From: Raillietiella orientalis
Lineage: Eukaryota
Assembly: GCA_036172245.1 (NCBI GenBank)
Contig: JAYWIR010000101.1
Location: forward strand, 62,001 to 126,000
Direction of reading: 5' to 3'
DNA length: 64,000 nt
The notes below the pieces were generated by a model. It saw only the letters and a list, made by a program, of their open reading frames with translations. It did not search any database and was not told the origin of the DNA. The first letter of the stretch is position 1. The number at the start of each line of letters is the position of its first letter. Below are positions 1,523 through 64,000 of this stretch, in pieces. Position numbers and translations under genes: made by a program.

Positions 1523-3814
1523 GCAGTGAGTGGACGTGTTTTTGTGGAGCTCCCGAAAACCGTTTTTTTCGCGGGTGTTTGTGGTGTTTTTTGAGCGGTT
1601 GTTCCTGGGCAGAAATGCCCGAGGACGACGCCAACACGGCCTAGGGGAGCGAACGAGCGTCGTCCCCCCAACCCATGGATGTGGGCGCCATCTTCCCCAC
1701 AGATTCGTCCCCCGCCCTGGCGAGGGCTTGGAGCGCGGTGGTGGCGGCGCCTGCGCCACCCCCCGCAGAGGAACAGCGGGCCTATGAGTCCCACGGATAC
1801 AACCCAGCCCTACTGTATAAGGTAAGTGGGCTTTATTCTCTTGCGATGTTGAGAACGTTTGCCGCGGAATTTGAAAAACTGAAAGTGCCGGAAGAAGAAG
1901 TTCTCGGCCTTTCCGTTCGCAGTGGCGGTCAGCTAGTGGAGCTGAACTGCAAAACTGCAGGAATGACTCAGCAGTTGCTGAGATGCCCGGTGACCGTGAA
2001 CGGGAGAAGGATCTTCCCGTTTACTGCCGACAAATCAATCGTCATCCACCTGACCGGGTTGACGATGCGAATGGCGAAAAATGCCGTTAGGCAGGAACTG
2101 GAAAAGTACGGGACCGTCCACGCTCTGTGGGCTAAGCCGAACACCCTGGGCTATACTAGGGCGTTCAGTGGCTATGCCGCCGCGCGTGTGACAGTCCGCG
2201 AGGATAGTGGTTTACCCCACCGACTTCAGGTCGATGAAGAATACATTGATCTGTGGTACATAGGGAAACCCAAATTCTGCGGAAACTGCGAGACTACAGG
2301 GCACCTTAAACGGAGGTGCCCCAACATCGTGTGTCTACGCTGCGGTAACAAGGGCCACGTAAGAAAGGTGTGCCCTCTTCGTTTTGCTTCCACTCCTGTT
2401 GGCAACAAGAGAACAGAGTCGCCACAGGAACCGGACAAACAGGATCCCCAATCGAGTGAAACCTCCCAGACAGGCGAGATATCGACGCCAGTGGAACAAA
2501 AACCGGAGGAAGGCGAAACTGTCGCCGAAAACAGTTGGCAGTTGGTGAAAAAGAAGGAGAGCAAAGGGAAAGGTAAGGCCCCCAAGAAAACGGTGAAAAT
2601 GGTGGAAAAAACCGTCCGCCGTTCCACCGTGCACATCGATCGCGTTCCCGCGAAGGCTTCCACCAGCAAGCCATCGATCGATACCGCACCCGCGGCGTCG
2701 ATCGATAAAGCGGTTCCGGCTTCGTGCGGCGAAATCGCTACGGTCGCGATCGATAGCGCGGCACACGTTGCCGCGATCGAATCTATTGTTCCAGTCCAGT
2801 CCACTGGAAGCGTTGTAGTGGCGAGCGAAAGCTCAGCCGCTGCGGTTCCGAACGATAGCGCGCCAGTTGCCGCTATCGAATCGGTTGTTACGTCACCCGA
2901 CTCGCCAACAGGCGGCGAAATCCGTGATGACGTGGAACGCATCTCTGATGCAAACTTCGCGCAAGCCGCGGAAGAGTTGGCTGCCTTCCTGAGGCAGCCC
3001 GTCAAGGCCGAGAAGAAGGCCGTTCGACGTCCGGCTACGGCAAAAGACCCGGAAACCTCCGAGTCTGACGCCGAAAGCGGGAACTCGCCCTCCGTTGGCT
3101 TGCCGAAAAGAAAACATAAAAATGCAACAGGTGCTCAGGAAGAGGTTGAAATGGCATCTGACAGCGAGGAAGAGTCCATGTGCGTTGCACAATGCGACTC
3201 CGTGCCTGAGAGCATCCTTTACCAACTGTTAACACAGTCCACGGCCGACGGAGTGAGCGATGCTCCTGAACACTCCAACGACATGGACCCGGACCACCCG
3301 TCTTCTGAACAGGAGGCGGTTTCTTCCACCCCACCATAACAACACCATTGCGTGGACTCGCCTCCTCTAGCCGCTTGCGAATAACCTGTTGGAACTTCAA
3401 CGGGTTGAGCAGCGACGGGAAGAGGCGAGACGTAGCCGCCATTCTGCGAAACTTCGACCTGGCCCTACTGCAAGAGACTCACGTGCTCACAACAGAAGCA
3501 GGCCAGGATTTCGAAAGAATCACAGGAGGGCGGCTACTGTGGAGGAACGGAACAGACTACTCCTGCGGAATGGCCTTTCTGCTGAAGCCGGCAGTCGAAA
3601 ACTCTCTGCGTAGCGTTCGCTTCGACGGGGACGGTCGAGTTGGACAGCTTGTTCTCAAGTGGTCCGAATCGATCGCCCTCGTTGTGACGAACAGATACGC
3701 GCCAGTGAGCAACCACGGGGCCGAGGAACGCACTGCGTTTTTCGAATCCCTGCGGTGAAACTGGCTGGATGAAGCAGGCGTACGGAGCGCGCCCCTCATC
3801 GCGGGAGATTTCAA
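1523..3814 (+). mobile_element. 5' part of an L1/Tx1-like element (copy A): 5' UTR, ORF1 and start of ORF2, cut off by copy B
   Basis: 5' motif GGACGTGTTTTT at 1532-1543 is shared with copy C. A gag-like ORF1 is followed by an AP-endonuclease start ending at AGDFN. Confidence 0.88.
1675..3339 (+). CDS. LINE ORF1 (gag-like nucleic-acid-binding protein, two CCHC zinc knuckles)
   Basis: 554 aa open frame with CGNCETTGHLKRRC and CLRCGNKGHVRKVC (CX2CX4HX4C) and a low-complexity C-terminus. N-terminus is homologous to ORF1 of copy B (GYNPALLYKVSG vs GYRPALRYKVSG). An in-frame upstream ATG at 1615 is blocked by TAG at 1642. Confidence 0.85.
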   Translation: MDVGAIFPTDSSPALARAWSAVVAAPAPPPAEEQRAYESHGYNPALLYKVSGLYSLAMLRTFAAEFEKLKVPEEEVLGLSVRSGGQLVELNCKTAGMTQQLLRCPVTVNGRRIFPFTADKSIVIHLTGLTMRMAKNAVRQELEKYGTVHALWAKPNTLGYTRAFSGYAAARVTVREDSGLPHRLQVDEEYIDLWYIGKPKFCGNCETTGHLKRRCPNIVCLRCGNKGHVRKVCPLRFASTPVGNKRTESPQEPDKQDPQSSETSQTGEISTPVEQKPEEGETVAENSWQLVKKKESKGKGKAPKKTVKMVEKTVRRSTVHIDRVPAKASTSKPSIDTAPAASIDKAVPASCGEIATVAIDSAAHVAAIESIVPVQSTGSVVVASESSAAAVPNDSAPVAAIESVVTSPDSPTGGEIRDDVERISDANFAQAAEELAAFLRQPVKAEKKAVRRPATAKDPETSESDAESGNSPSVGLPKRKHKNATGAQEEVEMASDSEEESMCVAQCDSVPESILYQLLTQSTADGVSDAPEHSNDMDPDHPSSEQEAVSSTPP

Positions 3815-3816
3815 TC
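3348..3816 (+). pseudogene. Truncated ORF2 AP-endonuclease domain of copy A
   Basis: TCWNFNG, LQETH, NRYAP and AGDFN motifs; in-frame TGA at 3756-3758; truncated at the copy B junction. Confidence 0.85.
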
Positions 3817-3894
3817 GAGTGCATACGTGTTTCTCTTCGCTCTCGTCTCCGTGCTTTCATCCGCTTCATCTTGGCGTCGTACATTTTGACGACG

Positions 3895-5817
3895 ATGTCG
3901 ACCCAACCCGAAGCTACTGAAGTTGGAGGAACAGCATCCGGATCTGCAATCGCGGAACCGACGGACGCCTCCACTTCGTCTTTTTAACCAATGGAGAGGA
4001 GTTTTGCTGACGTTGCTGCCACAGCAGCCGTCAATGGGAAACCACTCGACGAGTCGGAGTTGCGGGCATACGTAGCCCAAGGCTATAGACCTGCTCTCCG
4101 ATATAAGGTGAGTGGCTTTCTTTCTGCGCGCGACGGGAATCAGTTCAACGATGAACTGACCCGTGTTCGCGTGCGGGAGGAGGATCTTCTCGCCATTATG
4201 CCCGTAAAAGACATGGGCTATTTCAAGGTGCGTTGCAAAGACGCTGCACTTGTGCAACGCTTGCTGCGCACCCCGTTGTCGATCCGTGGCCAGAAGGTCT
4301 TCCCGGCCGCCATGGACGACTCATTTGTGGTGGAGATTTTCGACATCGAGTCGGAAATCTCCGATATTGATATTCGGAACGCGTTGGCGAAATTCGCCAC
4401 GGTCCATGCGCTGTGGAGGGTGCGTAGCAACCTCAAGGACTTCCCGTCCATACACAGCGGAGTCGCTGGAGTCCGGCTTACAATGCCGGACCGCCGTCTG
4501 CTGCCCACCAAACTGCAGGTGAAAGACACGGTCGTTCACCTGTGGTTCGTGGGCAAAGTAAAAACGTGCGAGCAATGCGGGAAGGAGGGGCATTGTTTGG
4601 ATAAATGACCCTCTGGAAAATGCCGTTATTGCAAACTATCCGGGCACCAATTGAAAAATTGCCCGGATCTTTGGCGAAAAAAGGCAGCCGCGGAGCTCCA
4701 TCTTAGAAAACAAAGCGCGGATAAAAAGAAAAAATCTGCGAAAAACCTGGAGACCCCACGGCAGAAATTCGGTAAAAACGCAAGGTGGAATGTCGCCCCA
4801 AAGCAGCAGGAAACCTCGCACGCGAAGCCCTGCGCACCCCCTCTCGCGGCAGGGGAGCCGCAAAAGAAAGGGTGCGGGGAATCCGGGGCAATGGTAAGTC
4901 CCCCTAGGCGCAATAGCTGTCCTTCCCAAGCACGCCCGGCTCTCTCGGAGTTCGCTCAACCGGCGGGGACGTCAATGGACAACGGCGGTAAGGACACTTC
5001 CAGTACCGTCAGATCCATTCCTTCACCTCCTGCAGTGGCTGAGAGGCCCAAATCGGGTAAGAAGGGTTGTGCCGTGTCGACTTCGAAAGTCGGCAAAAAA
5101 AAATCCGCGTCGCGATCCAACACCGCGAAAGCGGAGAAAAATCTCACGCCGTCGCAGTCGGAGAGCAAGCTCTCGACTGGCGCGGATGCCATGCCAACGA
5201 AGAAATCAAAAGCCCTTCCGAAGGCAGCGTCCATGACGAGCGTGTCGGAGCCATCCAAAGTGCTCCCGGCCAAAGACGCGGATGGCTTCAAAGATGGCAA
5301 TGGAGCACAATCTCCATTTACGGCGCCACGCGAAGTGAGGAACCGTAATGAAGTAAAGAAGACTTCAGAAAAAGTCCCTCGTGCAACTGCGCGTGAGCAC
5401 GCTGAAAACGCGCGCGCCGGGAAAGCAGCCGTCACCAAAAGCGATGCTCTGGTGACGGAAAACGAAAACAGAACAGCTGTCAATCCAGCAGAACCTGTCA
5501 CTACTTCGCGGAAGGCCGAAACCCGATCGAACAAGCGCCGGTCGGACTCCGAAATGGATGCCGTTCCGATCACCGAGACGAGGACAACTCGTTCGAAAGC
5601 GTGTGCGCGCCGATCAAAAGTAGGCAGCCAGGCAACGCTCGCCGCGAAGCAACGCGAAGTCTCCACGAAACCCGACGGGGTCCAGCCTGGCGTGGAGGCA
5701 TTACATGCATGCAGCACGACAGAGGACGGTGGCGACCGTCCCCTCAGGCCAGTCGTGCTGCTCGCCGTCTGCTCGCCGGATAAAGCGAGCAAAAAGCTGC
5801 CACCTTCCCAGCAGTAA
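3895..5817 (+). pseudogene. LINE ORF1 of copy B (two CCHC knuckles), interrupted by two in-frame stops
   Basis: Single frame from ATG 3895. TAA at 3985-3987 (TCG in copy C). TGA at 4606-4608 replaces the last Cys of CEQCGKEGHCLDKC. Second knuckle CRYCKLSGHQLKNC. Basic/Ser-rich tail. Confidence 0.85.
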
Positions 5818-8800
5818 TGCGGGGAATCGCGTCTTCTCGTCGTCTGTCCGTAACGTGTTGGAACGTGAACGGACTGCAGAACGACGAGAAGAGGCGATTA
5901 GTAGACAACGCCCTGCGCCCCTTCGACCTCGCGCTCCTGCAGGAGATTCACGTAATCTCCGACGAGCAGGCAGCCGAAATCGAGGAGCGCGCAGGCGGAA
6001 CGCTACATTGGCGGTGCGGCGGCGCACCCACGTGCGGCGTCGCGTTCCTCGTAAGAGGAAAAATGGCGGAAGCGGTGCGTAGTGTTCGTTTCGATGACGA
6101 CGGACGGATAGGCCAGCTTGTCATCAAGTGGTCCGAGTCCATCGATCTCGTCGTTACGAACGTCTACGCGCCGAGTGGCTCTCGCTACCTCGGAGAAAGA
6201 GTAGCTTTCTTTGGTGAGGTGCAGAGCCAGTGGCTCAACAACTCCGGCTTCCAAGTGGCGCACCTCGTCGCTGGGGACTTCAACGTCCGCCTGCTCTTGG
6301 ACGATTGGAGCCGCCCGAGGGAGCGCGCGCTGCCCATCGAGATGTGCGCGTCCGTGCACGCCGCCAACTTGATGGTTAGCGAACCTGGAATGGAAAGATC
6401 GCTCGATCACGTTTTCCTCGATGAAAACCTGCATTCGCGTGTGGGTAGGAGAGGAAGATTGTTGACTGAGCTTTCTGACCACCACAGGTTGGAGTTTGAG
6501 ATCCTTCCGCCAGGCAGGGGGCCTCCGTTGCAAAGCTGGAGGATGCAGGCGGATTGGCTTAGCCAACCGGAGGCTGCGGAGCATCTACGTGGATACCTCC
6601 GAGGCTTTGCCATTCAAGAACTTGCGGACTGGGACGATCTCAAAAGATCTGTCCGCGAGTTCTGTTGCCAATTCCCCTTGCACCGGCTTCCACGCGGTTT
6701 CGGAGAGGGCGTGGCCAACAGTAGAGACTTTCTGCAGGCCCGCACGTTTTCGACACGCGCGAATGTCGGGCGTCTCGCAGAGTACAAGGCGAGGGCCGAG
6801 CGCCAGGTCTGGCAGTCCGGAGCAGCATTCCTGTTGGACGACAAGGGCCAGGAATGTTCGGCACCAGCCGAAGTACGCCGCATTGTGAGGCGCTACTACT
6901 CCTCGCTCTACGCGGAATCCCCGACGGAGGATATTCTTTCTGAGATACTCCTGTCTCAGGATGCTCGTGTTGTCGGCGAGGAGGAACGCGAACGTCTCGA
7001 CGAGCCCTTCACGGCGGATGAATTTTCGTCCGCAATCGCTGGGCTGAAGAGACGAAAGGCGCCAGGCGAGGATGGGCTCCCTGCAGAGTTTTATCAGTGC
7101 TTTGCAGTGGAGCTCATTCCCTTGATGCTGAAACTCGCGACGCTGATGAGTGAATCCAGGAATGTCCCTGATTCCTTCCGCTCAGCGAAGGTGCGTCTCC
7201 TTCCGAAAGGCGGAGACTTGCGTCAACTTAACAGCTGGCGTCCGATCACCTTGTTGAACTCGGACGTCAAGTTGTTTTCCAAGCTGTGGGTCGCGCGGTT
7301 AGGAAGAATCGCGGAATCTGTGGTGAGCCCGGAACAAACCTACGCGGTTCCGGGACGATCCATGGAGGCGAACATCCTTTTCGCGCGTAGATGGATGCAG
7401 CTGCAGGAAGTTGTGGCGCAGCAAAGCCAGGCTGCTGCGAAAGTCACTGCCGCAGGCAAAAAGAACAGGCGCCGACGGCAGGAGGGAACGCCAGGTGCCT
7501 TGGCGGTCGCGGTCGATCTCCACAAGGCGTTCGACTGCGTCAACCAGAAGCTGCTTTTGGAGCTTATGGAACGCCTTGGGTTCCCGGCGCAACTCCTGCT
7601 GTATTTGCGCGCGTGCTGGCGCCACGCGCTAACCTGCATCACTTTTAGCGGCTGCCGCGTGTATGGTATTTCCGTTCGTAGGGGCATGCGACAGGGCGAC
7701 AGCTTAAGCCCGTTGCTCTTCAGCATCTTCTTTGAGTTGGTGCTAAGAGCATACAGGCTGACGCTGTCTCACTTGCCAAGCTCCTGCCCGGGAACGTCTG
7801 CCGTCGCCGCCTATGCTGATGACTTGCTTCTTCTGCTCCCCATGTCCACCCCGGCGTCCAGTGTCGAGGATTTCTTCGACCTGATTCGTCGGGGAGCGGG
7901 CGTGAGCGTGAACAGAGAGAAGAGCGTGGTCGTTCCTGTGGGTACGTCGTGGGAGGGGCAGTCCAACTGGATCCGCCTGGGGATGCCCATGGGCGGGTAC
8001 TTTAAGTACCTTGGCGTTCCGTTGGGCGCTTTCGGCGCAGCCGAAGCGTGGGCGGACTGTCTTCAGAAAGCAGAGTTGGCCATCAGCCCGTTCTTTAACG
8101 GCAAGTTTACCTTGCAGGAACGGGCGACTATTTGGAACACCTTTGTGGCCCCCCTCCTACGTCCCCTGTTTTTTGTTTTGGACCCCCTCCTATGCGGCAA
8201 AACAGCGATCTAAACGCCTGCTCAGGAACGCTCTCTGGGGTCCGGCGAGATCCAGAATCCGCCTCAAAGATTTGTTAGCTCCGCGTCGGGATGCTGGTTT
8301 AGGTATCTTGACAATGGAGCGAATCGGACTGCAGGTGCAGTTCCGACTGCTGGCACTGTGTACCCAGCTATGGACATCCCCCCTGTGTGTGCCAGCCCGC
8401 ATTCTCCTGCGGAGATGCGCCGGCAGCGGAGGATTTCTCTCGCTTTTGCCGGGCACTCAATACAGGAAGCGGGGTTTCGGGTTTCCATTGCGGCAGTTGA
8501 CCGCAGTTCTGGAAGCTCACTCGTGGATCTCCTGCCGCCCAATGAACTTTGAAGCTTGGCGGCAGGAGTCTGTTGAATCCTGGACGGCGTTCCAAGGAAT
8601 ACGCCCTGAAGATCTTCGCTCCCTGCGCCAATTTTTTCCACGATCCTTGGAAGAAGTGCTGCAGGACGAGGTGAAGTTTTCTACCCTGGCTGCCACGCCT
8701 CTTGCCGCAGCGCTGTCTGCCCTCATGGCAAGAAACGACAGTTACCCATTGGCGAGGTGGGAGGTTTCCTGCACGATAACGGGAAAAACCAAAATCCTTG

Positions 8801-9411
8801 GCGCCTGGAAGACGAGTGAGTTGGCGGACGCCGCCACTCCTCGTGTTACTGCAAAGGGACTCCTCCGGTAGGCAGAAGAACTTGCTGTCACCCCCGAAGA
8901 ACTTGTAATCCCTGCACAGTGTATTGACAGTTCGCTGCTCCTTCTTGCTTGGAAACAAGCCGTGCTGCTTTTCGTTCACTGGGGTTTTCAGTGCAACGAG
9001 CGTTGGCATCGTGACTCCGGGGGACTTGCGTCTGCGAACTGCGTTCGGTGCGGATCGACGGAGTCGATTCCGCACCTACTTCTGGACTGCGGTGTCCTAC
9101 AAGGACTGTGGCGTAGGCTGGCAACAGCACTGATGCATCCCGTGGACACCGCAAGAGACTTGCTGCGACGATTCTTTACGCCGAGCGGGCTGTCACTAAG
9201 CGCAAGGATTGCAACCATCGGTTGCATACGCGCGACAGTTTCCGTCCGCCAGGCGTTGGTAATCAACGGACAGCACCAGGAGGTAATCAGCAAAGCATCC
9301 TTCTACATGGGAGCATCCGCTAGATGGCCTCATTTGACAGAGGAGACAAAGAGGAATCTCGCCGCAATACACCGCCGGTTTACACACCCTCAGCAGCGGC
9401 CAACCCGGTGA
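5817..9411 (+). pseudogene. LINE ORF2 of copy B: AP endonuclease, reverse transcriptase, C-terminal zinc finger
   Basis: EN motifs WNVNG, LQEIH, NVYAP, GDFN, LDHVF, SDH. RT motifs APGEDG, WRPITLLN, DLHKAFD, GMRQGDSLSP, AYADD, KYLG. Zinc finger CVRCGSTESIPHLLLDC. One frameshift near 8185 and one TAG at 8869-8871. Confidence 0.93.
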
Positions 9412-9724
9412 TCGTTGCCCTACCCTCCATAAACTAGTTTTGTATTTTCTTTTTACACCCGCGTCCCCATAGGCTCCAGAACATTTTAGGTGCTCATCGT
9501 TTGAATCCCCGTGAGTACGGAGCCTAACCAAAAAGCCTTTTCCCTTCCCTCCAGTTTTTGATTTTTGTTTGTTTCCCCTCATTCCCCCCACGCTGCGAGC
9601 GGTTTGTTTACCAGGCCTGCGTGCCGGTAATTTTTCTATGTTCTCTGTCGTTCTGTTGGTTGGGCACATTGTCCCTGACCAGTTTATTATTATTAATAAA
9701 CGCCCCGGCGTGACCGGGTGATAA

Positions 9725-10149
9725 ATTTCAATCGAGTGCGGACGTGTTTTTCTTCGCTCTCGTCTCCGTGCTTTCATCCGCTTCATCTTCGCGTCGTACA
9801 TTTTGACGACGATGTCGACCCAACCCGAAGCTACTGAAGCTGGAGGAACAGCATCCGGATCTGCAATCGCGGAACCGACGGCCGCCTCCACTTCGTCTTT
9901 CTCGCCAATGGAGAGGAGTTTTGCTGACGTTGCTGCCACAGCAGCCGTCAAAGGGAAACCACTCGACGAGTCGGAGTTGCGGGCATACGTAGCCCAAGGC
10001 TATAGACCTGCTCTCCGATATAAGTTGAGTGGTTTTCTTTCTGCGCCCGACGGGAATCTGCTCAAGGATGAACTGACCCGTGTTGGCGTGCGAAAGGAGG
10101 ACCTTCTCGCCATTATGCCCGTAAAAGACATGGGCTATTTCAAGGTGCG
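9725..10149 (+). mobile_element. Head-to-tail 5' fragment of the same LINE (copy C)
   Basis: Ungapped direct repeat of 3808-4232 (offset 5917) with about 20 substitutions counted by eye; ORF1 start ATG at 9812. Confidence 0.92.
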
Positions 10150-12719
10150 CTGGCAATCTTATTTTCTAGGTTGTATTCGTTCCTCGCCGGAGAGAAATAT
10201 TGCAAAGGTTCCGAATAGGCAGCCGCACACCGTTTCGTAGTTGGTCAAATGGAGAGGCCTGAAAGAGCCTGCAAGCCGCCCTTCCCTTACATGTTCCGTG
10301 AAAGCAGCAAGTCATCCATACAAAATTCAAATAGAAGGTAATCAAAGATAAAGAGGAATTCCGCCTTACGTACTAAGAACATATGTTTTAAAGTTATTCC
10401 TATTTCGTGGTGAATCACATGGATTTTGACAATCTCACTGTTACGGGATGGCTCGAGCACATTTGGTTCGCTTCAATGAGGTAGCGGGAAAAAAGCGGAT
10501 CACCGCGTATTGGAATCCGCTTCCATTTTGTTCTCATGCAATTTCTTTCAAATAGAACAGAGTGCTCTTTTCCGCATACTATGTAATAACCAAGTCAGTC
10601 CACTGTGAAGTCTTACGATTACACGAGTGCTTTGATGTTCTGTAGCTCGCTGAGCGACGTCCTCTCTTTTCAAGAGGAGCAGACCAGACGCTATGCACAT
10701 CGGAAAGTGGATGGCTTCTCTTTCGGGATTCACATCGCTAGCTTGGGGATTCTTCTCGATGACAATCAACCTTTCTAGTTTTGCTTTCTCTTTGATCACT
10801 TAGTCGAAAGCTTCTCACAGCCCTGTCTACTCTGAGAGGAAGAACTTCAGCCGGGGGGATAGTAGCTCTTCCCAATGTTGCAAGGTGTGGAAGCAGCTCA
10901 CAGTCGCCGAGCGAGCGAGCAGAAAAACGCTGCAGGTCCACATTCTCGGGCAATAACATCCGCTCTGGTGGTTAGGAATATTGGGTCGAACTCTACAAGA
11001 AACGCCTTCTCTCCTGGTTGAGCCAAAGAGACGATGGTATCTGTCGCCCTCTCTGTGCTCATGTAGTTCTGCTGATTCTACAGGTGAGCAACGCTTTTCA
11101 TTTCAAGTGAGGCCTGGATGGCAAAGAGAGGTTTTACACTCCGGATGACCCTTGAACATGAATTGACTCTTCAAAAGTTGGGTCCGATTATTTCCTTGTG
11201 ACAAAAGCTTCATTGGAGATGTCTTTGAAAGTCATGGCTGCCTCAATCAGCAGGGATAAAAACATATGCCTGCTGACCAGGACTTCTTTTGGTATTGAGG
11301 TCCATGGATGCAACAGTTCCTCTTAAATGCAAGTACATCTGATATCAAAGTCCTTTTCCATTTCGATCCTCCAGGAATTTCAACGTTTTCCAGAGAGCTT
11401 GAAGAGTGCTGGTAAGGGCTGGTAGCGGTACCTTAATCGAGCAGTGCAGTATAACTACAGCGTTGGTTCACCGCATACTAAAGAAATCAATGTATATAGA
11501 AAGGTGAGATGTGACCTATTTTATCCCCTTGGGCGATTCCGTGTTGCACCATCTAGGAGGATTGCTGCCGATAAGCAGGAAGTTGCGGTGCCGACCAAAC
11601 TGTCAAAGTTCGGTGCTGTTCATGATGGTTGCTACCAAGAAAGTGTTACACCAGGCTTTCAGCACGTACAGTGGGCTGGAAGAAATGCGTACGCGTGCCG
11701 CGAATAGGCCACATATCTTAGAAGAACTATGGCTTAACAAAGAAATCGTCAGGTTTTGCTTGGTCAGGCCCAAAGTTGTACACTCTGTAAGGTCACAGGA
11801 AACGAACATCAGGCTCTCCCGCTGCAGTGAAGCCGCGAAAATTTTTCATTTGCAGGCAACTTGGTCAACTAATGAAAGAGAAATAGGTGCACGACAAGAA
11901 CAAGTCCTCGCAAAAAGATCTTTGGCACAAAAAGCCAAAAGCGTACCAGAAGGATCTTTGCTTACTAAGAAAATGGTACCAAGGACACAATGAAGGAAAG
12001 TGCAATACCAACAGCAGTCTCAGTGACCAAGACGACGCCTAAGGAGGAAAGCGGCTTTAGACTAATAGGGACACTAGTGATACCTTTCTCCATGCACATA
12101 ACGTTCTCGGGCCTGTAGCTTTCGAAGGGTCACAGGTCGTCGCAAAGTTCCTAACGGGATTTAGAGTATAGAATAACCACTTGCGACGCCGAAATGAAGT
12201 ACGCGCAATAAAATTACTTGGATCGAACGGAGGAAGGCACCCCAGAGTTTTTAAGGGGAAAGTAATTTCCCCTGACGAAGAGTTGGGAAGCTGACGAGTA
12301 TCTGAAGAAACGCACAGGGAACCGTGTTGAGCCACAGTATTTCAAGATGAGTTCCTGATTATAATTTCTCCTTCTACTGTGCGATTTGCCACTCCAGGTG
12401 GATAAGCGTGGAACACGGAGTCCTCTTCTCAGGCACAATGAGAAGATCAGAATCTGTGGGCACCTGTGACTGTCACTTTCCGATCTATTTGCATATGTAA
12501 CTTAGATTTACATTTTTGTTGCTTTCGTTTGGTTTTCGTTTCCCTTATGCCTAACCTGCAGAGGTTTTTTCCCTCGTGTGCATCCCGATATGTCGGCAGG
12601 TATTGCATGTAATGAACGTGGCAGATCCGAGCCACTTTGGAACGCCTTGGTGCGCTTCCCTGTTGAAGAAGGAAATAAATACACACCTAGCGCATTCAGG
12701 TGGGAAACCACCATGAACA

Positions 12720-14400: not shown

Positions 14401-15789
14401 GCGATTCCAAAAGGAAGACTCAAGGAAACAAAGAGTGACTACTCGATTCGACTTCTTCTGGTGCTGCATCAATCCCTGTTCAGTACGTATTAAAAACTTT
14501 CCAAAAAGGAACATAAATTTCTCGAATCAGATTGTGTTGAAACATTACTCACAAATGTGCATATGGAAATACATTTCTCGAATCATTTTTTCAGAAACAC
14601 ATGCAACTATGTCTGTATGCATTTTAGAGACATATTCGCACTTTGTGCTGAATGTGCCCATCTGTGAACGTATCAGTCATACGCACGCAAGCAGCACTGT
14701 AAACCGAGTATTACCTCGGCAGTGCGAGCACATAGAAGTACAGCATTCCAATCTAAACAAGGAAAATCATCCGTGTGTTCATTGCATTGCTCATAAAGGT
14801 TTTCTGAATGCTGGTATTAATATTTTTGAGGATGAGTCGTAAAGATGCCTATAAGGTGTTCAGATGTGTTGGTAGGAATAGTGGTGTGTTCTTAATGTTG
14901 AATTCTTATTTAAAAGGTTTGAAATCACAACGACAAAATGGAGTATTCAGGGGAAAACCATTCGGGGTGATTAAAAATTTCAATTTCGGTGCTGCAAATA
15001 AATAGGCACTTAGAGGGGTGTGCAAGGATGCATTGGAACACCAAAGGGGAGGAGCGGATGGACTCTGTATTTAGGGAGATTTCCACGCACACATTTCTCT
15101 TCAAAATGAAGGCATCGTTCCAGAAAAAACTTTATCTTACTCCGAACATCAAATCCTTCATTGGTAGACATTCTATTCACTTGAAACTCTGAAGGGGATA
15201 TGTTAAAAAGAAAAAGAGTTCAGAGCGTTACCATGAATGCTAATCAGCATTACGAAAGTTTGCGTGTCATTTGAAGAACCACATGACGCACTAAGCCGCC
15301 GCATGCTTCACGCTGTACAAGGAGAAGAATCTCGGGACTGGCATCAAGGATTCCCCATTCCCAAGCATAAGGGGCAAAGCGAAAGAAACGCCCAGGAGGC
15401 CGTGACGAGTCACCTAGAGTCTCCCTGCGAATAAAGTGGAGAATGCTGCAGGAAAATGCAAAGGCGAATGGAAGGTTGTGGAGCGGTGAAATGACAAGTG
15501 CTAAAAGAATAGAAAGCAAACTTCATCCCTGAGCACTTGCAACTCCACTGGCGTGACACATTCTCCGCTGAACGGCGAACGCTTTACCCGGAACCCACAG
15601 GTTCGGTACCCGGGGAGGAGCCCTCGATAGCGTGCAGCACGGTGGAGCCAGGTGGCGACTGCGCCCTTGGCGTGCAGCGCGGTGCAGGGTGGTGGCGACT
15701 GCGCCCTACAGCCCGTCGTGCTGCTCACTTCCCCTTCGCTGAGTGAGACGTACACCAAGGCCTTGCTTTGTCAGTCGTTATGAAAGCAA

Positions 15790-18698: not shown

Positions 18699-19560
18699 AG
18701 CCAGCGTCGGAGGCCTTGTGGTTAAGGCTTCCGCGTGTGGCACCGTGCGTCGCGGGTTCGAATACTCCGGCAGAAACTCTGACGCCACTGCGTCGTTTGG
18801 GTTCCGAGTTTCTCCTGCAACGGCGCTGGTTGACCGAGACATTCGGGCGTGGCACCGGCGGTGGATTAAGCCGGAGGCCCCCGATGAAGGCCGGAACAAT
18901 GGGAGTCGACCTTCGGGTCCTTCCAGGAATAAAGGAGTGGTGAGTTCCCCCTCCTGTCGTACAACGGAGAGCGGACCCCCCCACCGGGAGACCCCTCCGG
19001 TTTCAAGATGGATCAGGAGCCCTCACGGGCACCTCTCCAGTTGTTCAAAGGAGCGGACCCTCCCCGTTGCGGGGGGTCCCTCCGAGTCGTCGCCTCTTCA
19101 CAGAGTGTGCACAAGGAAGCAAGCGAGAGCGATTCCCTGCGGGATGCTGCAGCGCTCCTTCTGAGTTTCGGAAGCGCCCCTTCGGGGATCTCTTCAGAGG
19201 AGTGAACAGGAGCGGTTCCCTTGCGGGTTCCCTCCCGAGAAGAAATTCCTACAAGCGGATCCTTTCCGGTTTTGCTTCGGAGAAGTTGAAATGGTGAGGA
19301 CCACCCCCCTCCCAGGGGGTGTCCCCCGGAGATAATGTGGAAGGAGATTCCCTTCGGGTTTCACCTTCGGAGACAACCAGGGTGGGAGGTGAGATCCCCC
19401 CCGTCCGGGAGGATCCCTCCCCAAGCGTGAGAGGAACGGACTCCGAGCCCTTCCTGAATTCATAGGGCGGACCCCCATCCAAAGGTGCCCCCTTTCCTGA
19501 ATAATTACACTGAAGAATTACACGCCCCTCTGAGGGTTGCCGCGGGCGGAGGGGCGTGGA
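18699..19560 (+). mobile_element. tRNA-derived SINE-like element with tandem hairpin-array body (copy S1, apparently full length)
   Basis: A-box-like AGGCCTTGTGG at 18711-18721 and B-box GGTTCGAATAC at 18755-18765. About 14 GGAG...CTCC-type hairpins at 18900-19490. Terminal 10-bp stem CACGCCCCTC/GAGGGGCGTG. AACAAAA on both flanks (18692, 19561) is a candidate TSD. Homologous copies lie elsewhere in the window. Confidence 0.75.
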
Positions 19561-19569
19561 AACAAAATA

Positions 19570-19980
19570 GTGTGTTTAATTTTCAGAAAAGAGCCACGTG
19601 CGCCGCGAGGCACGCAACCAGCTCTGAGTTACTTAGCAAACCAAAAAAAAGAAGAAAAAAAGAGAAAACTCTTAATAAAAAAAAAAAAAAATGAAAGAAA
19701 AGAAACCTGAAAGAAAAACGGCGAAGTCAGAAGAAAAAGAAGAACCCAAGGATTTCCATAGTCCTAGGCCAATAATAACGATCTCCTCGTGGGGGTCGCT
19801 ACTGGCCTTTAAAAAAAAATAAAAAAACTCAATGAAACCTTGAAAAGAAAGAAAAGGAATTCTTTGCATTCGAAATTGATGCACTCAGTTCATCGGACCG
19901 AATCTGTGGGCACTTTATTCGCTTGGGAGAAGTTGCCATCTTCTTTGGAGTGTTCCGAGGTAGCCAAGCACATTTTACGT
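19570..19980 (-). mobile_element. LINE 3' UTR / ORF2 end fragment
   Basis: T-rich UTR on the minus strand preceded by a WQLLPSE-like ORF2 tail; contains a hairpin at 19591-19625 that is repeated at 61676. Confidence 0.45.
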
Positions 19981-20019
19981 ATTTGCTAAGCTTTGCGACC
20001 CGACTTCCAGTTTGCCCGC

Positions 20020-20395
20020 TTAGGAGGAGATGAAATGGAGCAGACCACCCCCCGAGAGGTCCCTCTGAAGAGAATGAGGAAGGAGATCCCCTTCAAGGTT
20101 CTTCTTCGGAGACAACCAGGGTGGGGGTGCGATCCCCCCTGCCTCCGTGTGCGGGACCGAGCGTTGCTAGAAGCCTTCGCGTTTGCTGAGTGCACGAGCT
20201 GGGTTCCCTTCTGAGAAGAAGCAGAGGAACGGTCCCTTCCGGAGGGAATCACAAAGAGCTTTCCTTCGGGGTTCCCTTCGGAAAGAGCCAGGGTGAAGGG
20301 TTTCTCCGGAGCCCTTTCTGGATTAATGACTTGGTCCTCTCCCGGATCGCCCTTAACTTGGAGAGTCAACACGCACCCTTGGGTGGTGCGGAAAC
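20020..20395 (+). mobile_element. 5'-truncated copy of the hairpin-array SINE (S3)
   Basis: Shares CTTCGGAGACAACCAGGGTGGG with S1 and the 3' block AACTTGGAGAGTCAACACGCACCC with S2/S4. Confidence 0.75.
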
Positions 20396-21624
20396 CGTGT
20401 CAAAGGACAAACAGTCGCATGCAGCCCACGCTGTTTTCTCAGAGAACGCAATCAACGAATGAAGGGCATCATTCCAGCCGAAAGCGGACGCCAATGATTG
20501 ACCGCGGCAGCTTCTCAACAACCTCTGGTTTTTTGGCAGGTGGCGCGAGGACAGAGGATGTTTGAGGTCGACTATATGCTCCGAAGGGACTCGGGACTCC
20601 GGGGCGAGGAAAGAGCGATCGTGCTTGGCGCCTTCCGGAACGAGACGAGACGGAAACGCGACGACTCCATCCCTGGAAGACCAGACAAAAGAAGGGAAGG
20701 AGGACGCTACCGCGGACCAAGCTCGTCGCTCTCCCTGCAGCCGAACGTCGTTGTCAGTGGAAGCAACGCCCTAGATCCAGGAGATGAAGGTACTTTGCAG
20801 TCCGGCAAGCCCTACGGAAAAGAAAGGGAAGAGAAATGGTGTCTTCTCGCTCACCCCACATTCGCAGCTCGGCGATCCAGTTGCAAGCGATACCCCGGGC
20901 TCGACGCGCTGACTGCCTGAAGGACAGTGAGTCCACAGAGGACGGCGGCGTTCTCACGAGGCGTGCCACCTAAACCACATTCTCAATCAGCGCGCGCTGG
21001 CAACTCGAATGCGATCGCCGAGATGCTGGAAGCACTGGCATTCCAGATCAAGATGTCCATCGAAGGCAAGCTGGCAGGGAGTGGCCTCCTGGTGATCCAT
21101 TCGTGGAGCAAACTCCCAAGTGAGACGCCGGAACTGGTGCTCCGCAGAGACGGATGACGTCTTTCGTGCCTACGAGCAGTCATCTGCTGCTGCAGGAAAG
21201 GCAAACGCAACGCGAGGAGCCTCAGGTCGATTGCCCGTTCGGCCGCCAGGAGGGGCACTTGCATCAGTGCGAAAAGGTCGCCGCAGCCTCCACGTGGCCA
21301 CATCATGAGGGCTGAAGAAGGGTGGAACCGCAACAGCGGGGAGGCGGTATGGTCCCGAGCCTCAGACGCCCCCGGGACAGACGCCTTCTGAAGCGCAGGC
21401 TGGTAAGGCCACCCAGAGACAACTTACCCTCAAGAACCGCAGCCCCCTCGGGAGAAAAGGAAGCGCACGATTGATTGAGAAGGGAGAATCTCTCCATCAT
21501 CTCCATCGAAACGTTTTGCTCCGAGCAGTTCTGCCTCCTATGCTGGAAGCATGGGCTAGAGAACGCTGGCTGGGACGAGCCACTCCTTGAAAACCACAGC
21601 GTCTCGTTCAGAAGACCAAACCGA

Positions 21625-21675
21625 GGGCAGGGAACCCCGAAGGAAACCCCCGCCTTGGTTGTCTCCGGAGGAAAG
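21625..21675 (-). repeat. Short fragment of the hairpin-array SINE
   Basis: Reverse complement TTCCTCCGGAGACAACCAAGGCGGGGGTTTCCTTCGGGGTTCCCTGCC matches about 27470-27517. Confidence 0.7.
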
Positions 21676-24081
21676 AACATTCGGAACCGAGGGGGTGATC
21701 ACTGCCTGAAAGAGCGACGCCCACGGGGAACAGCAGCGTTCTCACATGGCGCGCCACCTACACCACATTCTCTTACGGCGAAGATAACGGTGATACCCCC
21801 TCACCTTTCAGCATTTGTTCGCACGCCAGCCGGTTAACGAGAATCGCAAGCACCCAACATGTCGTCTCCTTCGTTACCAGCAGGAACCCGGGCATGTTCA
21901 CGACATGCGTGCGTGTCTGCCGGAACAAGCTCTGCGTGTGCACAAACCAAAAGAAGAAGGAGGCAAAAAAAGAAGAGAGGAAGACAAAAGTCGATCGTTG
22001 GCTGGGAGTGATCGCCGGCGCCCTCCGACTCGCCAAACAAAAAATCGGGAAAAGTGCGAGTGTGCATCGCCCCCGGCCGATCACCCACCGTTTCCTTCGT
22101 CCACGATCGACCGCTGCTTGCCTCCTGCTAGCCACCCGCTTGGAGCTGACCGTACGAACCGTCGTAGGTCCAGCACGAGCGTTTCGGCAGTGCCGGTCGT
22201 CACGGAGACCGGAGCCCCTTTGGGGCGCTCTCAAAGGCGCGTTGGGGGCGGAAGCGCGCCGGCACGCTGCCTGGAGCGCAGACAAAAAATGGCTCCCTCC
22301 GCGAGCAAGCCCTACGGAGAATGCTGCTCGGCTTCTGATCCCAGCTCTTCTGCTTGGTTCCGGGGGAGGGTCGAGGCCATGCCTGGGTCGCAGAGTGCTG
22401 TGTTTCCGTAGAATTGCTTTTTGGCAGGTAGTCATGGTTTCTGGCGCAATCCTCTTGTTTACTAAGGACGAAAACAGCTTCTACGTCGGTTGCTACAGCA
22501 AAAATAATCAGTCCGAAGACCTCGAGCGCACATGCAAGAATTCAATTAATTGTGTGCAGCACACGTTGCGTCTGCTGCTGAGAAGAAGCACCTTTGCTTG
22601 TTTTCCAATCATGGAGAAGTAACGAACCCCAGGGATGAATCCGCTTCAACCCTTGCAGCTGCTCAGAATACGTGATTTTCAGAGATTGGTGCGTTCCATT
22701 GGTACAATCAAATCATTGGGAAACTTTGAATCAAACTTTCTTTTTTCCTGATTCGCTGCTTGGCGATGATCGAAAAACATTCGATTGCGTGGATCCGCCC
22801 ACGCTCGTTGCATGGTAAGGTGCAGGCAAAGGAGCATCGCTCATGAAACCGCATTGACTGGGGATAAATGGGTCAGGATTTCCAGACCGGTGAGCCGTTG
22901 CCTTGAAGAGAACCGAAGATCCAACCAACCAAAGATGAAGATCGCCATGCTATATCCAGAGCTGCTGTTCCTCCTGGGGTAAGAAGATTCTCTGGAGGGC
23001 CTCTGATAGCTCTCGTTTGCAGCACTGCTGTAGCATTTTCTTACCGCGAGGAAGAGACGACCTTCCCTGAAATCATCCCGATGAACTCAACGGAAGAAGT
23101 AAGCCACGCCCGTCGATCCTTTCGGGCGCTTCGCATCCTCGGCAACGCGTAGGATCCGTTCTTCTGCGCGGACGAACTTTGATTCGTCTGTTCCCTCCAG
23201 CGGAGCTGCCCGATCCCAATGGAACGGCGCCTTCGATCCGTAGGTTTTGCTCGCTCCCTCTGTTATTCGGGGTGTGGTCGCTCCGTGTTTTCGGAAAAGC
23301 AGGACGAGCGGTGCCAAAAGGGTTTCACGCAAACATCGCTACCGCGCGTCACCTGCTCTAAGCGCTCGGCAGTGGGATCGAAACTCCAAGAAGAAACTCC
23401 AACTCTTCGCCGGAAGGGTCCTTTCTTACCACCAAACGCGACTCCAAGACTTCGGCTGTCATCGGACCCTGCGTCGCAGAGTTTTCTTAAGGTGTCCCAG
23501 CCAAGGAATGCTGGCGATTCCAGTGGCTCCAATCTTGGTTGCTGCTGGAGAAGACCTCGATCAGCTGCTTCCCTGGCAGCGTCTGCGTAGCCTCTGTGTG
23601 GTGCTTCGTCCGTGCAGCCATCTTGGAAGCGGCATGGAAGCAGAGCGTTTCCGAGGAGGAAAAGCGACGAGTGGAGTTGACTGCCACCGCAGCTTTAAAG
23701 TGGTCACCTCGTGGTCAACGTGTGGGGGGGGAGTTTCCCCTTCCAGTATCCGCAATTCTTTGTGGCTGAAGGCAAATCGCGCGTGGTTGAGATGCACGCT
23801 CTGTATCCGGTGAATTCGAGCTGGAGTCTTCCGACGAATGTTTCCGCCCGCTCTTCGCCCCAGCATCGGGATTATGCTTCGAGGCGGCGCTTCTCTTTGA
23901 CCGCGTAGCCTCAGGTCCAGTTCGACGAAGTCTCTGCCCTTTCTCCTTCTCCTGATACTCTTTTTCTCTCTTCGTTCCTTCGTCTCTTGAGCCCTTTCTC
24001 CCTTCATTTCTTCCGTCCTTCCTCCCCCCTTCCCAGCCTTCCTTTTTCCATTCTTGCTTCTCCGTTCACCCCTCCCTTCAG

Positions 24082-26913: not shown

Positions 26914-27635
26914 GTCGTCTTTGGCCATGTGTCTGCGGTCCCCGCGAGTGGCGCCAAATGTCGCAGGTTCGAATCCCGCTCGGGGAAGCGTCGACGCCAG
27001 AGAAATGGGCGCGTCGTGGGTTCCCAGTCCCCCAGCCCGCAGGATGACACTGGTTGGCCTGTAGATTTCGGGTGCGACACTGGATGCCCCGATGAGTAGC
27101 CGGGGTCTGGAAGTCGACCCTCCGGGGTCCTTCCATGAATCAAGGAGACCTTCGTGGTTCCCTCCGGTTGTGAAAATGCAGTCACCAATTGCTTATCATG
27201 GAGCTGGTTGATATCCCTTTTGGAGAGCTGCCTCTCCTGATTGTCAAAGGTGCCCTTTACAGAAAATGGGAAGTCCCTTCTGGGTTCTCAGTTCGCGTTC
27301 TGGGTTCTCTTAGGAGGAGTAAACGAGGAGCAGTTCCCTTGAGGGTTGCCTCAGGAGATGAAATTCCGGGAATGGGCCCTTTCCGGGTTTCCTTAGGAGA
27401 AGAAACGAGGAGTGCTCCCCCCTTCGGAAGGTCCCTCCGAAGAGAATGAGGAAGAGGTTCCCTTCGGGTTTCCTCCGGAGACAACCAAGGCGAGGGTTCC
27501 CTTCGGGGTTTCCTGCCAAGCGTAAGAGCAAAGGACTTTTTCCTCCAGAGCCTTCTTGGATTCATAAGTGGTCCCTTTCTGGAGTACCCCCTAAATTGAA
27601 GAGTCACCATACGCACCTCCGGGTAACGTGGCTAG
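26914..27635 (+). mobile_element. tRNA-derived hairpin-array SINE (copy S2)
   Basis: A-box-like TGGCCATGTGT at 26922-26932 and perfect B-box GGTTCGAATCC at 26966-26976. Repeated GAGGA..CCCTTCGGG..CCTC-CGGAGA units of about 40 nt at 27325-27520. Colinear with S1. Confidence 0.8.
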
Positions 27636-34169: not shown

Positions 34170-34690
34170 GGCTGCGCACGCCACCTGAGGGTGCGTGGTA
34201 ACTCTTCAAGTTAGGGGGCAACCTCGTAGGGATCACCCCATTGATTCAGGAAGGTTCCACAGAAGGGAATCCGTTCCTCTTATGCCTGGGAGGGGAACCT
34301 CTCCCTTATTCTCTCCGGAGGGAACTCTGAAAGGATCCACCCTTTCTTTGCTACTCCCCTGGACGAATGGACGCTTCCCAATCTCTCCGGAGGGCTGCTT
34401 CCCGAAGGAAGCAGCGTCCTCCTTACAGTCTGAAGAGATAGCCCTCCGAGGAGAATATCAACCAGTTCCATGGTACGTGATAATACGGCTCCGTTCTCGC
34501 AGCTGAAGGAGAGCTCCGAAGGGCTCTTTGGCTCCTGGAAGGACCCTAGAGGGTGAACTTCCAACACCAGTCACTTTACGGGGTCATCCTTTCCCCGGCT
34601 TCCAGCGGAGCCGCACCTTTTGCTGGACTGTGTCACCAGCGTCATCTTGCGGGGGGAACTTGAACTCACGACGCACCCCCATATCTCGGC
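34170..34690 (-). mobile_element. Hairpin-array SINE (copy S4), head interrupted by a LINE 3' end
   Basis: Reverse complement is colinear with S2 (GCGTCGTGAGTTC; GGAAGTTCACCCTCTAGGGTCCTTCC; CTTCCTTCGGGAAG; AACTTGAAGAGTTACCACGCACCC). Confidence 0.78.
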
Positions 34691-34699
34691 TTTGATCCT

Positions 34700-35730
34700 A
34701 TATTTTTCCCCGTTCACGCCAAGGCGTTTATTGTAGAAAAAAAAAAAATTCCTCCTTTTGCTGGCAGAAATGCGGCCATCTTGCCGTCTTCCTCACGAAG
34801 AAGCAAACGATTGGGATGACCGCACCGTTCGATTGCCCTCTTCCGGAGCGGCTTCTCGCAGCCGCCGCAATCCCTCGAAGACAGCACTGAGCTGCGCAGA
34901 GCAGGCGAAATCGAGTCGCGCGCGAAGCGTGGCGTCGTCCTGCCGTCGTCCATCGACAGTGGGAGGGCCGCAGCGAAGCGTCTGCTGGCGCTCTGGAGGG
35001 AGACGCAATCCAGCAACAGGTGCGGGAAGGTTTCCCATCCCCCGCAACTGGCACTGTGCCTCGTTCAGTTGCGGACTCGCACGCCACATGGGATCGCCCA
35101 GTGCGACAACTGTAATGCCGAGTCCTGCCCCACTTCATGGCTGCAGGCTCGTGCTGTTTCTTTCCGCTCACGCCTGAACTGTTCCCAGTGTCCAGGTACC
35201 ACGGTCGCCAGGGCGGCAAGGAAACCCAACCGTTCTCCAGGACCGAGACAGCCATTTTCTGAAGCTGGCACCCTGGTCTCGGGGCAACTCTCGGCCGGTG
35301 GCCATGAGCGAAGAGGGTACCGAGTCCCTCGGCGCCGGCTGCTCTCTTGGACAGCGTCCGACGCGGAAGCACCAGTGTGTTCTGCAGAAATTCCCTGCTA
35401 GGGCTCATCTTGGAGCTGATGCTCCACCCTCTCCAGCATCAGGAGACCGAGTCCAGCATACCGAAGCGGCGCGCACACAATTCCTTCAAGCGGACCCTGA
35501 ATCTCTGCACTCCCCAGAGCTCGGAGGGAAGGTTGCGCCACTCATGGGGCTGCCCTTGCGACCACGCTCAGATGCGAAAGAGGTGGGTCTGATGGTGCCG
35601 CATCTCGGGGAAGACTGCAGTGACGAGCACGTGCCAAGAGCTCTGGCAGCGACCTCCTCAGGCCGGTAGGACGTCCTCTGTGACGATTCCTTTCAGAAGC
35701 TCTGCGACCTGAGGAGGGTGTGCGCCTCAC
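34700..35730 (-). mobile_element. Degenerate LINE ORF2 3' end (copy G)
   Basis: Zinc-finger-like peptide (GCGGWETFPHLLLDC) and terminal AATAAACGCCTTGGCGTGAACGGGG at about 34732-34708. Confidence 0.7.
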
Positions 35731-45230: not shown

Positions 45231-45356
45231 CCATGGGTCCCAGAATGTTTGAAAATGATATTACGAAGCCTGGAAAGGAGATTGTTTGGTACTCGTGGTT
45301 TCGACACTCGTCACGAGTTCCGGAGTGAAGTACCGACAAGTACCGAGGTACCACTG
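45231..45356 (-). mobile_element. Partial copy of the Tc1/pogo-type MITE
   Basis: Reverse complement of about 63597-63722, including the TIR CAGTGGTACCTCGGTAC, followed by TA. Confidence 0.8.
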
Positions 45357-45599
45357 TATGCAAAAACATTCAACTCTTTCATGAAAAAAAATGAAACTTA
45401 CCTGCAAGCTTCGAAGCTTGCGCATATCTTTTCCTTGAACTAAAACTGTGTTCGATCTTCATGGGCTAAAAGAGACACTTTCTGTTCTTCCGTTGCACCT
45501 TGTTGTAGATTCATGGAGTCATCCGAAGGATGCCTTAGACGGTGTGTCCAGTGGACTGTCCCTCCTATGTTGGATGAATCAGGCTTCCAACGGGCGCCT

Positions 45600-48790: not shown

Positions 48791-49559
48791 CGGAAGGCAA
48801 CCCAATTGCTAAACGGGACTTTCATTTGCAGCAGTAGAATGCAGGCTGTTAAATGCAACGGATGCTGAATCAATTCCTGAGGAGGATGGAGGTCCTAAGG
48901 CCACTGGAGAACTTTCAGGTGTTCCAGAGGATGCATCGGACCTCTTCTTGAAAAACTGACGCCGATGCAGTGGAATGTTCCTTTCGAAGGCTTTGTCTGG
49001 CGGCACTGCAGCTGTCTGTTGAAGACACGTCCTGCTTTCGCGTGCCCGACGGGTGCACGACCGCTCCGCTTCGAAAACTCCGGTTGTTCCCGTCGTCGCC
49101 GTGTGCTCCCCACCCACCAACGTCCTCCGGGAAGAATCTTCTCTCCGCCCCGCTCGGGTCGGCGACCACGGCGCGGGACGTGCGCAGCGGCCGTGCGGTG
49201 AAAGTGCGTCCCCTGCAGGAGTGTCGCCGCAGTCCCATCGATTCCCTGCAGACGTGCACCACCACCACACCCCGATTTGCTCCCCTGGCCCAGCCGTGGG
49301 GGAGAGCCCTACGAGCGACCCACCAAGTGAGCAGCGGGGATTACACGTGAACATTTTCATGCATCTGGCCATGGGGGAAGTGGGCCCTGATCGAAGCCAC
49401 GGCTCGGGACGCGACTGATGCAGCAATGCTGGGTATTCGCTGGTAGGGGCTGAGAACGGATGAAAATGGAGTTCCATTATCTTGAATTCATAAGATGATG
49501 AGCATTGTGTGCTTGACTGAGATTGCAGGATGAATTCGGGAAGCGCCGATGTGATGCAT

Positions 49560-63976: not shown

Positions 63977-64000
63977 TACTTTTTAAATTATCAGCTAAAC

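Follow-up and report, generated by a model that had tools for sequence, protein, structure and literature searches.

The stretch of DNA analyzed here, 64 kb in length and referred to below as the window, carries a dispersed and modular repeat family that is fairly likely to represent SINE-like, non-autonomous retroposons of about 0.7–0.9 kb, with a decayed tRNA-related head, a degenerate tandem body of ~41-nt units and a 3' end formed by a stem-loop. The hairpin units of the body are genuine, and nothing shows that these hairpins are maintained by selection. In the model that we favor, the head would be a decayed tRNA-related unit with a B box and a second T-arm-like block behind it; the body would be a tandem series of units in which a purine spacer precedes a G-rich 5' arm, a CCC-loop-GGG core that often carries a UUCG cap, and a C-rich 3' arm; and the element would finish in a 3' domain of ~150 nt that closes with a stem-loop and has no A tail. 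Transcription would start from the element's own 5' end, possibly by Pol III, and the reverse transcriptase of a LINE that recognizes 3' stem-loops would copy the element to new sites, a process that would also yield 5'-truncated copies, while module number would change through slippage or unequal exchange inside the array. The best reading of the present copies is that they are now decaying neutrally. If this model is correct, the family would be a lineage-specific, SINE-like group that is useful for annotating the repeat-rich genome of a poorly sampled animal, as well as an example of a SINE body made by tandem amplification of a hairpin-prone unit, near the upper limit of SINE length.

Copies, boundaries and probable retroposition

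Six homologous pieces were found in the window, with an identical set being returned by blastn, single-sequence nhmmer and profile nhmmer, and none of these searches detected further family members in the rest of the 64 kb. The pieces are as follows.

Copy A: 18699–19560 (+), 862 nt, full length
Copy B: 26914–27635 (+), 722 nt, full length; five tandem modules of 38–43 nt are clear at ~27312–27520
Copy C: 34170–34690 (−), without the first ~90 nt (the first head unit), 3' end kept
Copy D: 20018–20395 (+), 5'-truncated, without the first ~500 nt, 3' end kept
Fragment E: 21626–21674 (−), a single internal module, 94% like copy B, with a 9-nt direct repeat on both sides
Fragment F: 61575–61666 (−), a piece of the 3' domain, 82% like copy A

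The relatives gave blastn identities of 75–82% and nhmmer E values of 1e-7 to 1e-46, copy A having 75% identity to B over 204 nt, 79% to D over 129 nt and 82% to F over 94 nt; these values, together with the profile search, confirm as genuine homologues the five relatives listed in the original prediction. Copies B and C are identical at 402 of 534 aligned positions (75%), and their length differences in the alignment are insertions or deletions of whole modules, while B and E share 94% identity over 49 nt. Five of the six pieces fall inside 16 kb (18.7–34.7 kb), and the copies lie mostly in a LINE-rich, GC-rich island, with a GC content of their own (56–61%) that is similar to that of the LINEs in the window.

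The family has defined ends. The 5' starts of A and B coincide within ~8 nt in the same tRNA-like head, with unrelated DNA upstream, and A, B, C and D cease to be homologous just past one common terminal hairpin. Since the sequence bordering the six copies is unrelated between copies, they spread by transposition and not by segmental duplication, which we could rule out. Truncation is one-sided, in that C and D have lost their 5' ends; fragment E, being internal to the element, is not a 5'-truncated copy. A defined 5' start, a common 3' end and one-sided truncation make up the pattern given by target-primed reverse transcription, and we infer that the copies probably arose by retroposition, through a polymerase and a partner LINE that we likewise infer. 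Other marks of insertion are sparse. Copy A is surrounded by a 7-nt, A-rich, low-complexity target-site duplication, which 14 of 200 shuffles match, and none was found around B, C, D or F. The 9-nt direct repeat around fragment E was matched by 4 of 200 shuffles (window 21609–21690, −), and this fragment may be filler DNA from repair. No terminal inverted repeats were detected, with 408 of 500 shuffles of A and 299 of 500 of B scoring as well as the native ends, and neither a simple-repeat tail, an A tail nor any other common tail follows the terminal stem-loop in A, B, C and D.

LINE remains in the GC-rich part of the window comprise one full copy and at least nine fragments from several subfamilies, of which two features bear directly on the repeat.

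Full-length LINE: 3808–9724 (+), encodes both endonuclease and reverse transcriptase and is a candidate supplier of the retroposition machinery
LINE 3'-end motif: 34709–34732 (−), about 25 nt upstream of copy C and in the same orientation

The same motif ends LINE copies at 9695–9713, 80–104 (−) and 37703–37728 (−), and further upstream of copy C there is weak colinear similarity to LINE 3' regions; its position next to C would fit either insertion of the repeat into the A-rich end of a LINE or a template switch made by the reverse transcriptase. All that the repeat's terminal hairpin has in common with the LINE end is a short ACGC...GCGTG stem, and beyond this stem neither blastn nor nhmmer found nucleotide similarity to the LINE fragments of the window, so that no partner LINE can be named from the window.

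No coding similarity or Pfam match was found inside or beside the copies, and a coding reading of the repeat was rejected, given that open reading frames over the copies have no Pfam matches and that the copies differ by insertions or deletions of whole ~41-nt modules. An rRNA-derived body was rejected as well, the body having no similarity to the LSU-like fragment of the window. Rfam searches on and around the copies gave no credible match, the pattern of the 3' domain was matched at four loci in a metagenome scan, none of them homologous by nhmmer and all of them therefore chance matches, viral contigs gave no match and prokaryote genomes three, all by chance, and nothing related was found in the literature searched for printed stretches of the repeat.

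The tRNA-like head and the tandem body

The layout of the family is most complete in copy A, in which the following features were located.

18699–18785 (+): tRNA-like head, with predicted hairpins, a B box and a weak tRNA-Sec-like alignment
18700–18741 (+): long hairpin of the head, from the predicted fold
18755–18765 (+): B box inside a T-arm-like hairpin, matching the consensus at 10 of 11 positions
18704–18712 with 18777–18785 (+): possible 9-bp acceptor-like closure of the head
18786–18900 (+): another GTTC block resembling a T-arm, near 18800, with linker hairpins at 18804–18846 and 18851–18879
18901–19420 (+): body of ~12 degenerate ~41-nt modules, from the period of 40–42, the module listing and the hairpins
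18911, 19180 and 19352 (+): cUUCGg caps
19421–19560 (+): 3' domain, where homology to the other copies ends
19427–19463, 19464–19493 and 19521–19558 (+): hairpins T1, T2 and terminal T3 of the 3' domain, from the predicted fold
19497–19523 (+): 13-nt tandem duplication, specific to copy A, just before the terminal hairpin

A B box occupies homologous places in the two full-length copies, agreeing with the consensus at 10 of 11 positions in A and at all 11 in B (26966–26976). Across the 64-kb window, B-box matches occur at chance level (6 vs 4.6 expected), and those in A and B would appear to be meaningful solely through their homologous position. The second GTTC block is common to A, B and C, where it forms invariant alignment columns, and the A box was judged by eye against its consensus. 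The tRNA detectors recognized no cloverleaf in the heads: ARAGORN called no tRNAs in the window, and none on the heads even with lowered thresholds, calls appearing there only once the threshold was relaxed to a point at which they contradict each other, and the Rfam tRNA model gave no hit at its gathering score, nor any at E ≤ 10 on stretches of 1–2 kb. The best Rfam match, obtained with 146 nt of the copy A head, was to tRNA-Sec (13.5 bits, E = 3), in an alignment with the 9-bp acceptor-like closure and a 6-bp D-like stem, whereas the copy B head returned nothing tRNA-like except a T-arm match within a Y-RNA-like model. The head thus seems tRNA-like in outline, yet is not a demonstrable tRNA derivative, and the original description of the repeat as tRNA-headed holds for the B box of A and B and for the GTTC block of A, B and C, but not for a tRNA that detectors would accept. 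The broader proposal of a Pol III-type-looking head on a discrete, dispersed and modular repeat is supported by the shared 5' start of the two full-length copies, the shared 3' end of the truncated ones, the unrelated flanks and the lack of terminal inverted repeats. By eye, a T4 run lies inside A near 19270, and T4 and T5 runs lie inside B, which would tend to stop Pol III.

Periodicity of the body was evident from purine/pyrimidine autocorrelation, with a peak at a lag of 40–42 in A, B and D (z 2.9–3.9) and negative values near lag 20. The strongest peak in copy C was at lag 70–72, with a weaker rise near lag 42, and among three control stretches two stayed at or below z 1.9 (1.1–1.9) and one reached z 3.5 at lag 75–77. 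Cutting at pyrimidine-to-purine junctions resolved five clear tandem units (38–43 nt) in B and ~14 modules in A, in agreement with the 35–45 nt modules, and with their number of about 14 in copy A, that had been read earlier. Internal direct repeats at offsets of 68–83 and 173 point to a putative two-module higher-order unit. TRF called no tandem repeat on the array, and the units are therefore less than ~70% alike; the body is a degenerate tandem motif whose number varies between copies. Module listings show a unit in which a GGAG-led purine spacer is followed by a G-rich arm, a CCC-loop-GGG core, often flanked by two U-U mismatches, and a C-rich arm. A strand bias of the UUCG motif, which the original prediction had named as a check, is present in the six pieces (CTTCGG 14 times in sense and once in antisense), and the capping that it had proposed is borne out by eye in copy A, where three of the five CTTCGG sites cap stems no shorter than 3 bp.

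These features bear on two alternatives to a retroposon with its own promoter-like head. The repeat might not be a SINE at all and might instead derive from a Pol II-transcribed LINE family still to be identified, either as its terminal part or by deletion, the tRNA resemblance of the head having arisen by chance. This would agree with a head that fails every tRNA detector, with B-box matches at chance frequency in the window, with the contiguity of copy C and a LINE 3' end, with a length of 0.7–0.9 kb and with a GC content (56–61%) similar to that of the LINEs; we nevertheless regard it as unlikely, as A and B share one 5' boundary below unrelated upstream DNA, coding similarity and Pfam matches are absent in or beside the copies, and there is no nucleotide similarity to any LINE fragment of the window. 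Still less probable, and in our opinion very unlikely, is a DNA-level repeat that was never retroposed, i.e. a MITE, a non-autonomous DNA transposon of Helitron type or a local duplication of DNA that bears a minisatellite. Terminal inverted repeats are missing, the termini, inspected by eye, are not consistently Helitron-like, the flanks are not duplicated, and truncation is confined to the 5' end, against which can be set the clustering of five pieces inside 16 kb, a hairpin potential that is equal on both strands, and a 3' end that consists of a GC hairpin, as Helitron 3' ends also do. A Helitron or MITE as such was rejected on the missing inverted repeats and on the termini as judged by eye.

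Folding strength and pairing between copies

Local folding was computed with a pair span of 50 and compared with dinucleotide shuffles and with shuffles restricted to stretches of 4, 8 and 12 nt. In addition, bodies were cut by composition alone, and the 5' half of one module was joined to the 3' half of another; this cutting sometimes splits hairpins and is cruder than a hand-curated module alignment. The values for the four larger copies are as follows.

Copy A: z −3.95 sense and −4.29 antisense; restricted shuffles −3.3, −3.4 and −4.8; arm swap, native −191.3 vs chimeric mean −173.4 kcal/mol, native reached by 7 of 300 permutations
Copy B: z −1.10 sense and −0.67 antisense; restricted shuffles 0.0, −0.9 and −1.3; arm swap, native −124.3 vs chimeric mean −117.9 kcal/mol, native reached by 57 of 300
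Copy C: z −2.13 sense and −3.17 antisense; restricted shuffles −1.2, −2.3 and −2.1; arm swap, native −94.4 vs chimeric mean −82.4 kcal/mol, native reached by 19 of 300
Copy D: z −1.68 sense and −0.85 antisense; restricted shuffles −1.7, −1.9 and −2.5; arm swap, native −90.1 vs chimeric mean −76.9 kcal/mol, native reached by 17 of 300

In these predictions only copy A appears clearly more structured than its local composition would suggest, with 24 local hairpins, some of them of −19 to −27 kcal/mol, while copy B is no more structured than its shuffles and C and D are weak. The hairpin richness described in the original prediction therefore applies to copy A (z −3.3 to −4.8) and not to B, which stands at shuffle level, or to C and D, in which it is weak. 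The comparison of sense, antisense and shuffled sequence that had been proposed alongside it gave no strand preference, in that sense and antisense fold equally well, with similar energies and with 85 and 75 G-U pairs, respectively. By the arm-swap calculation, about 85–95% of hairpin stability would be generic to the unit; the native arrangement has a small advantage over chimeras in all four copies, which are not independent of each other. A 5' arm taken from any module will pair with nearly every 3' arm, and this property of the repeated unit accounts for most of the hairpin character of the body.

Conservation of pairing was assessed by projecting the local fold of one copy onto another through pairwise alignment, for every ordered pair among A–D. 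On the sense strand, 116 of 363 changed pairs remained standard pairs, vs 112.7 expected for random position pairs with the same letters, and on the antisense strand 100 of 349 remained paired vs 99.4 expected. RNAalifold, applied to the best-aligned stretch of the body (five sequences, 234 columns), found just eight pairs and no compensatory changes, in an alignment whose power is lowered by two rows, out of five, that consist mostly of gaps. The body shows no conserved pairing between copies, and no constraint on pairing can be detected in the decaying copies of the window, as seen in tests that cover six decayed insertions, have low power and are blind to selection confined to a source or master element. 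The original prediction that the relatives keep the pairing is not borne out, given 116 of 363 kept pairs and a body consensus of eight, and its proposal that the RNA is structurally selected finds no support in these tests, given chance-rate pairing, no body consensus, no strand preference and largely interchangeable arms. Template-switch mutation may also produce well-matched hairpin arms without selection.

The 3' domain differs from the body in giving a weak hint that pairing of its hairpins, within the terminal ~150 nt, may be conserved. RNAalifold on five sequences (158 columns) returned 27 pairs with an unfavorable covariation term (+3.28). Of the cells in that structure, 80.9% were paired vs 76.0% after shuffling, a level reached by 4 of 500 shuffles, in a measure for which the tool's own trials gave comparable values in 5–25% of unconstrained alignments; eight pairs had changed on both sides vs 4.6 expected (9 of 500 shuffles reach this), and with partners slid the paired fraction was 37–59%. 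As the tested structure had been taken from this alignment itself, the signal is inflated. The terminal hairpin of copy A has a perfect 10-bp stem, unlike those of B, C and D.

A quite unlikely alternative to neutral decay holds that selection has shaped the body as a multi-hairpin RNA, which would serve as a multivalent scaffold for protein binding or be cut into unit-length small RNAs, and that the present copies descend, in decayed form, from a master with strong structure. The specific complementarity that copy A retains above its local composition (z −3.3 to −4.8), its hairpins of −19 to −27 kcal/mol, the 14:1 ratio of CTTCGG, the slight superiority of native over chimeric modules in all four copies and the paired cells of the 3' domain (80.9% vs 76.0%, 4 of 500) would all fit such an RNA. 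Against it, copy B lies at the shuffle level of structure, the UUCG strand bias can be inherited from one ancestral unit, neither energies nor G-U pairs favor one strand, about 85–95% of hairpin stability survives the arm swap, and the 3'-domain signal is inflated by a structure taken from the tested alignment, with a covariation term that is unfavorable (+3.28). Preserved pairs between copies are, moreover, not in excess, and the body has no consensus structure. A specific form of this proposal, to which we give equally little credence, is that the ~41-nt hairpin units and their GGAG-rich single-stranded spacers would constitute a selected multivalent platform on an unusually long retroposon RNA made by Pol III or Pol II, for which the zinc-knuckle ORF1 protein of the co-resident LINEs could be a candidate binder. 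If that were true, module number would tune the capture of LINE machinery by the parasite, and copy A would be young and still well folded, with B, C and D decayed. Given the z values of copy A and the double changes in the 3' domain, some structural constraint could have acted in the source lineage; were the hairpin array conserved between subfamilies, the family would offer a tractable retroposon RNA that recruits its partner's proteins via repeated structural modules.

Relation to known retroposons and to the surrounding window

Precedents exist for most parts of a SINE-like retroposon with this layout. In the SINEBase article (Vassetzky and Kramerov 2013, PMC3531059), a working criterion of <1 kb is given for SINEs, the 175 SINE consensus sequences span 75–662 nt, and relation to tRNA, 5S or 7SL RNA is taken as at least 60% identity over at least 60 nt. 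Like the tRNA-related SINEs described there, the repeat is <1 kb, interspersed and non-coding, has a B box at tRNA-like spacing and a head-body layout, and occurs with 5'-truncated copies alongside co-resident LINEs. Unlike them, it has no simple-repeat tail, copy A (862 nt) exceeds the 75–662 nt range, and 60% tRNA identity of the head is not demonstrable, the best match being tRNA-Sec at 13.5 bits (E = 3), in A only. The family is nonetheless short (<1 kb), interspersed and non-tandem, with A at 862 nt, B at 722 nt and unrelated flanks.

The hosts of CHRS SINEs are mammals, whereas the host here is an invertebrate-like metazoan. The CHRS SINE is called a "quasioligomer" in the same article, with a degenerate motif of ~20 nt that is repeated more than 10 times and with variants that differ in repeat number (PMC3531059). 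The body of the repeat resembles CHRS/CHR-2, as described there, in being a degenerate tandem motif repeated more than 10 times and varying in number between variants, and differs from it in a unit that is ~41 nt rather than ~20 nt and forms a hairpin-prone quasi-palindrome, the two being likened by description and not by sequence. The combination of a tRNA-like head and a tandem degenerate motif has a precedent in the CHRS SINE. As far as its sequence can indicate, the family appears to combine known features, in that its head is tRNA-like, its body quasi-oligomeric and its 3' end a stem-loop.

SINEs such as UnaSINE1 are mobilized by "stringent" LINEs (UnaL2) through a 3' stem-loop. Like this type, the repeat ends in conserved stem-loops instead of an A tail, and any hint of compensatory change is confined to its 3' domain; unlike it, the 3' tail is not common with the LINE of the window beyond the short ACGC...GCGTG stem, and terminal short tandem repeats are absent. 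In Matetovici et al. 2016 (PMC4758252), UnaSINE1/UnaL2 are named, 3' ends common to SINEs and stringent LINEs are discussed, and stable hairpins in invertebrate SINE bodies are treated as possibly functional. With the SINEs carrying the Vhc subdomain the repeat shares a body that is predicted to fold into stable hairpins; Vhc is, in that account, a single 40-bp hairpin conserved across phyla, whereas the repeat has many paralogous tandem hairpins, whose pairing, unlike that of Vhc, is not detectably conserved between copies.

The window is sharply split between a transposon-rich part (1–48000, mostly 53–60% GC with a dip to 46–48% at 10–16 kb, CpG observed/expected 0.95) and a gene-bearing part (50000–60000, 31–38% GC, CpG observed/expected 0.62). 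Its genes lie in the AT-rich DNA of 31–38% GC, where a kinase exon is present in addition to the following, and they mark the host as a metazoan that has no close named relative among the proteins searched.

49491–50281 (−): mitochondrial-carrier exons
59306–59746: exon of a 3-hydroxyacyl-CoA dehydrogenase type-2-like gene, with best named relatives in insects, molluscs, arachnids and rotifers at ~52–69% identity

Several other features were noted in the window. A hairpin-forming repeat of ~63 nt occurs just twice, at 19589–19651 (+) and 61674–61737 (+), with 84% identity and a 25-nt exact core, each time 8–30 nt from a piece of the SINE-like family; next to copy A, a long A-rich tract (19640–19850) comes after this repeat, which may represent the 3' terminus of a different retroposon. 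A weak match to eukaryotic LSU rRNA (59 bits, model positions 665–1302) extends over 62964–64000 (+) and runs off the end of the window, with no SSU or 5.8S rRNA upstream, and a 61-nt LSU-like piece within it (63595–63655) recurs inverted at 45298–45358 (93%); these matches look like dispersed rRNA-derived fragments. A long GC hairpin lies at 5707–5763, just upstream of the start of the LINE endonuclease/reverse transcriptase ORF, in a stretch (5000–5860) that folds far better than its shuffles (z −5.6), and it is kept at 74% at 15670–15726, within a second, diverged LINE fragment in which TRF reported a 40-nt tandem duplication (15630–15707). Finally, a 428-nt direct repeat of 95% identity, at 3808–4235 and 9725–10152, indicates that a second LINE copy begins head-to-tail directly after the end of the full-length LINE.
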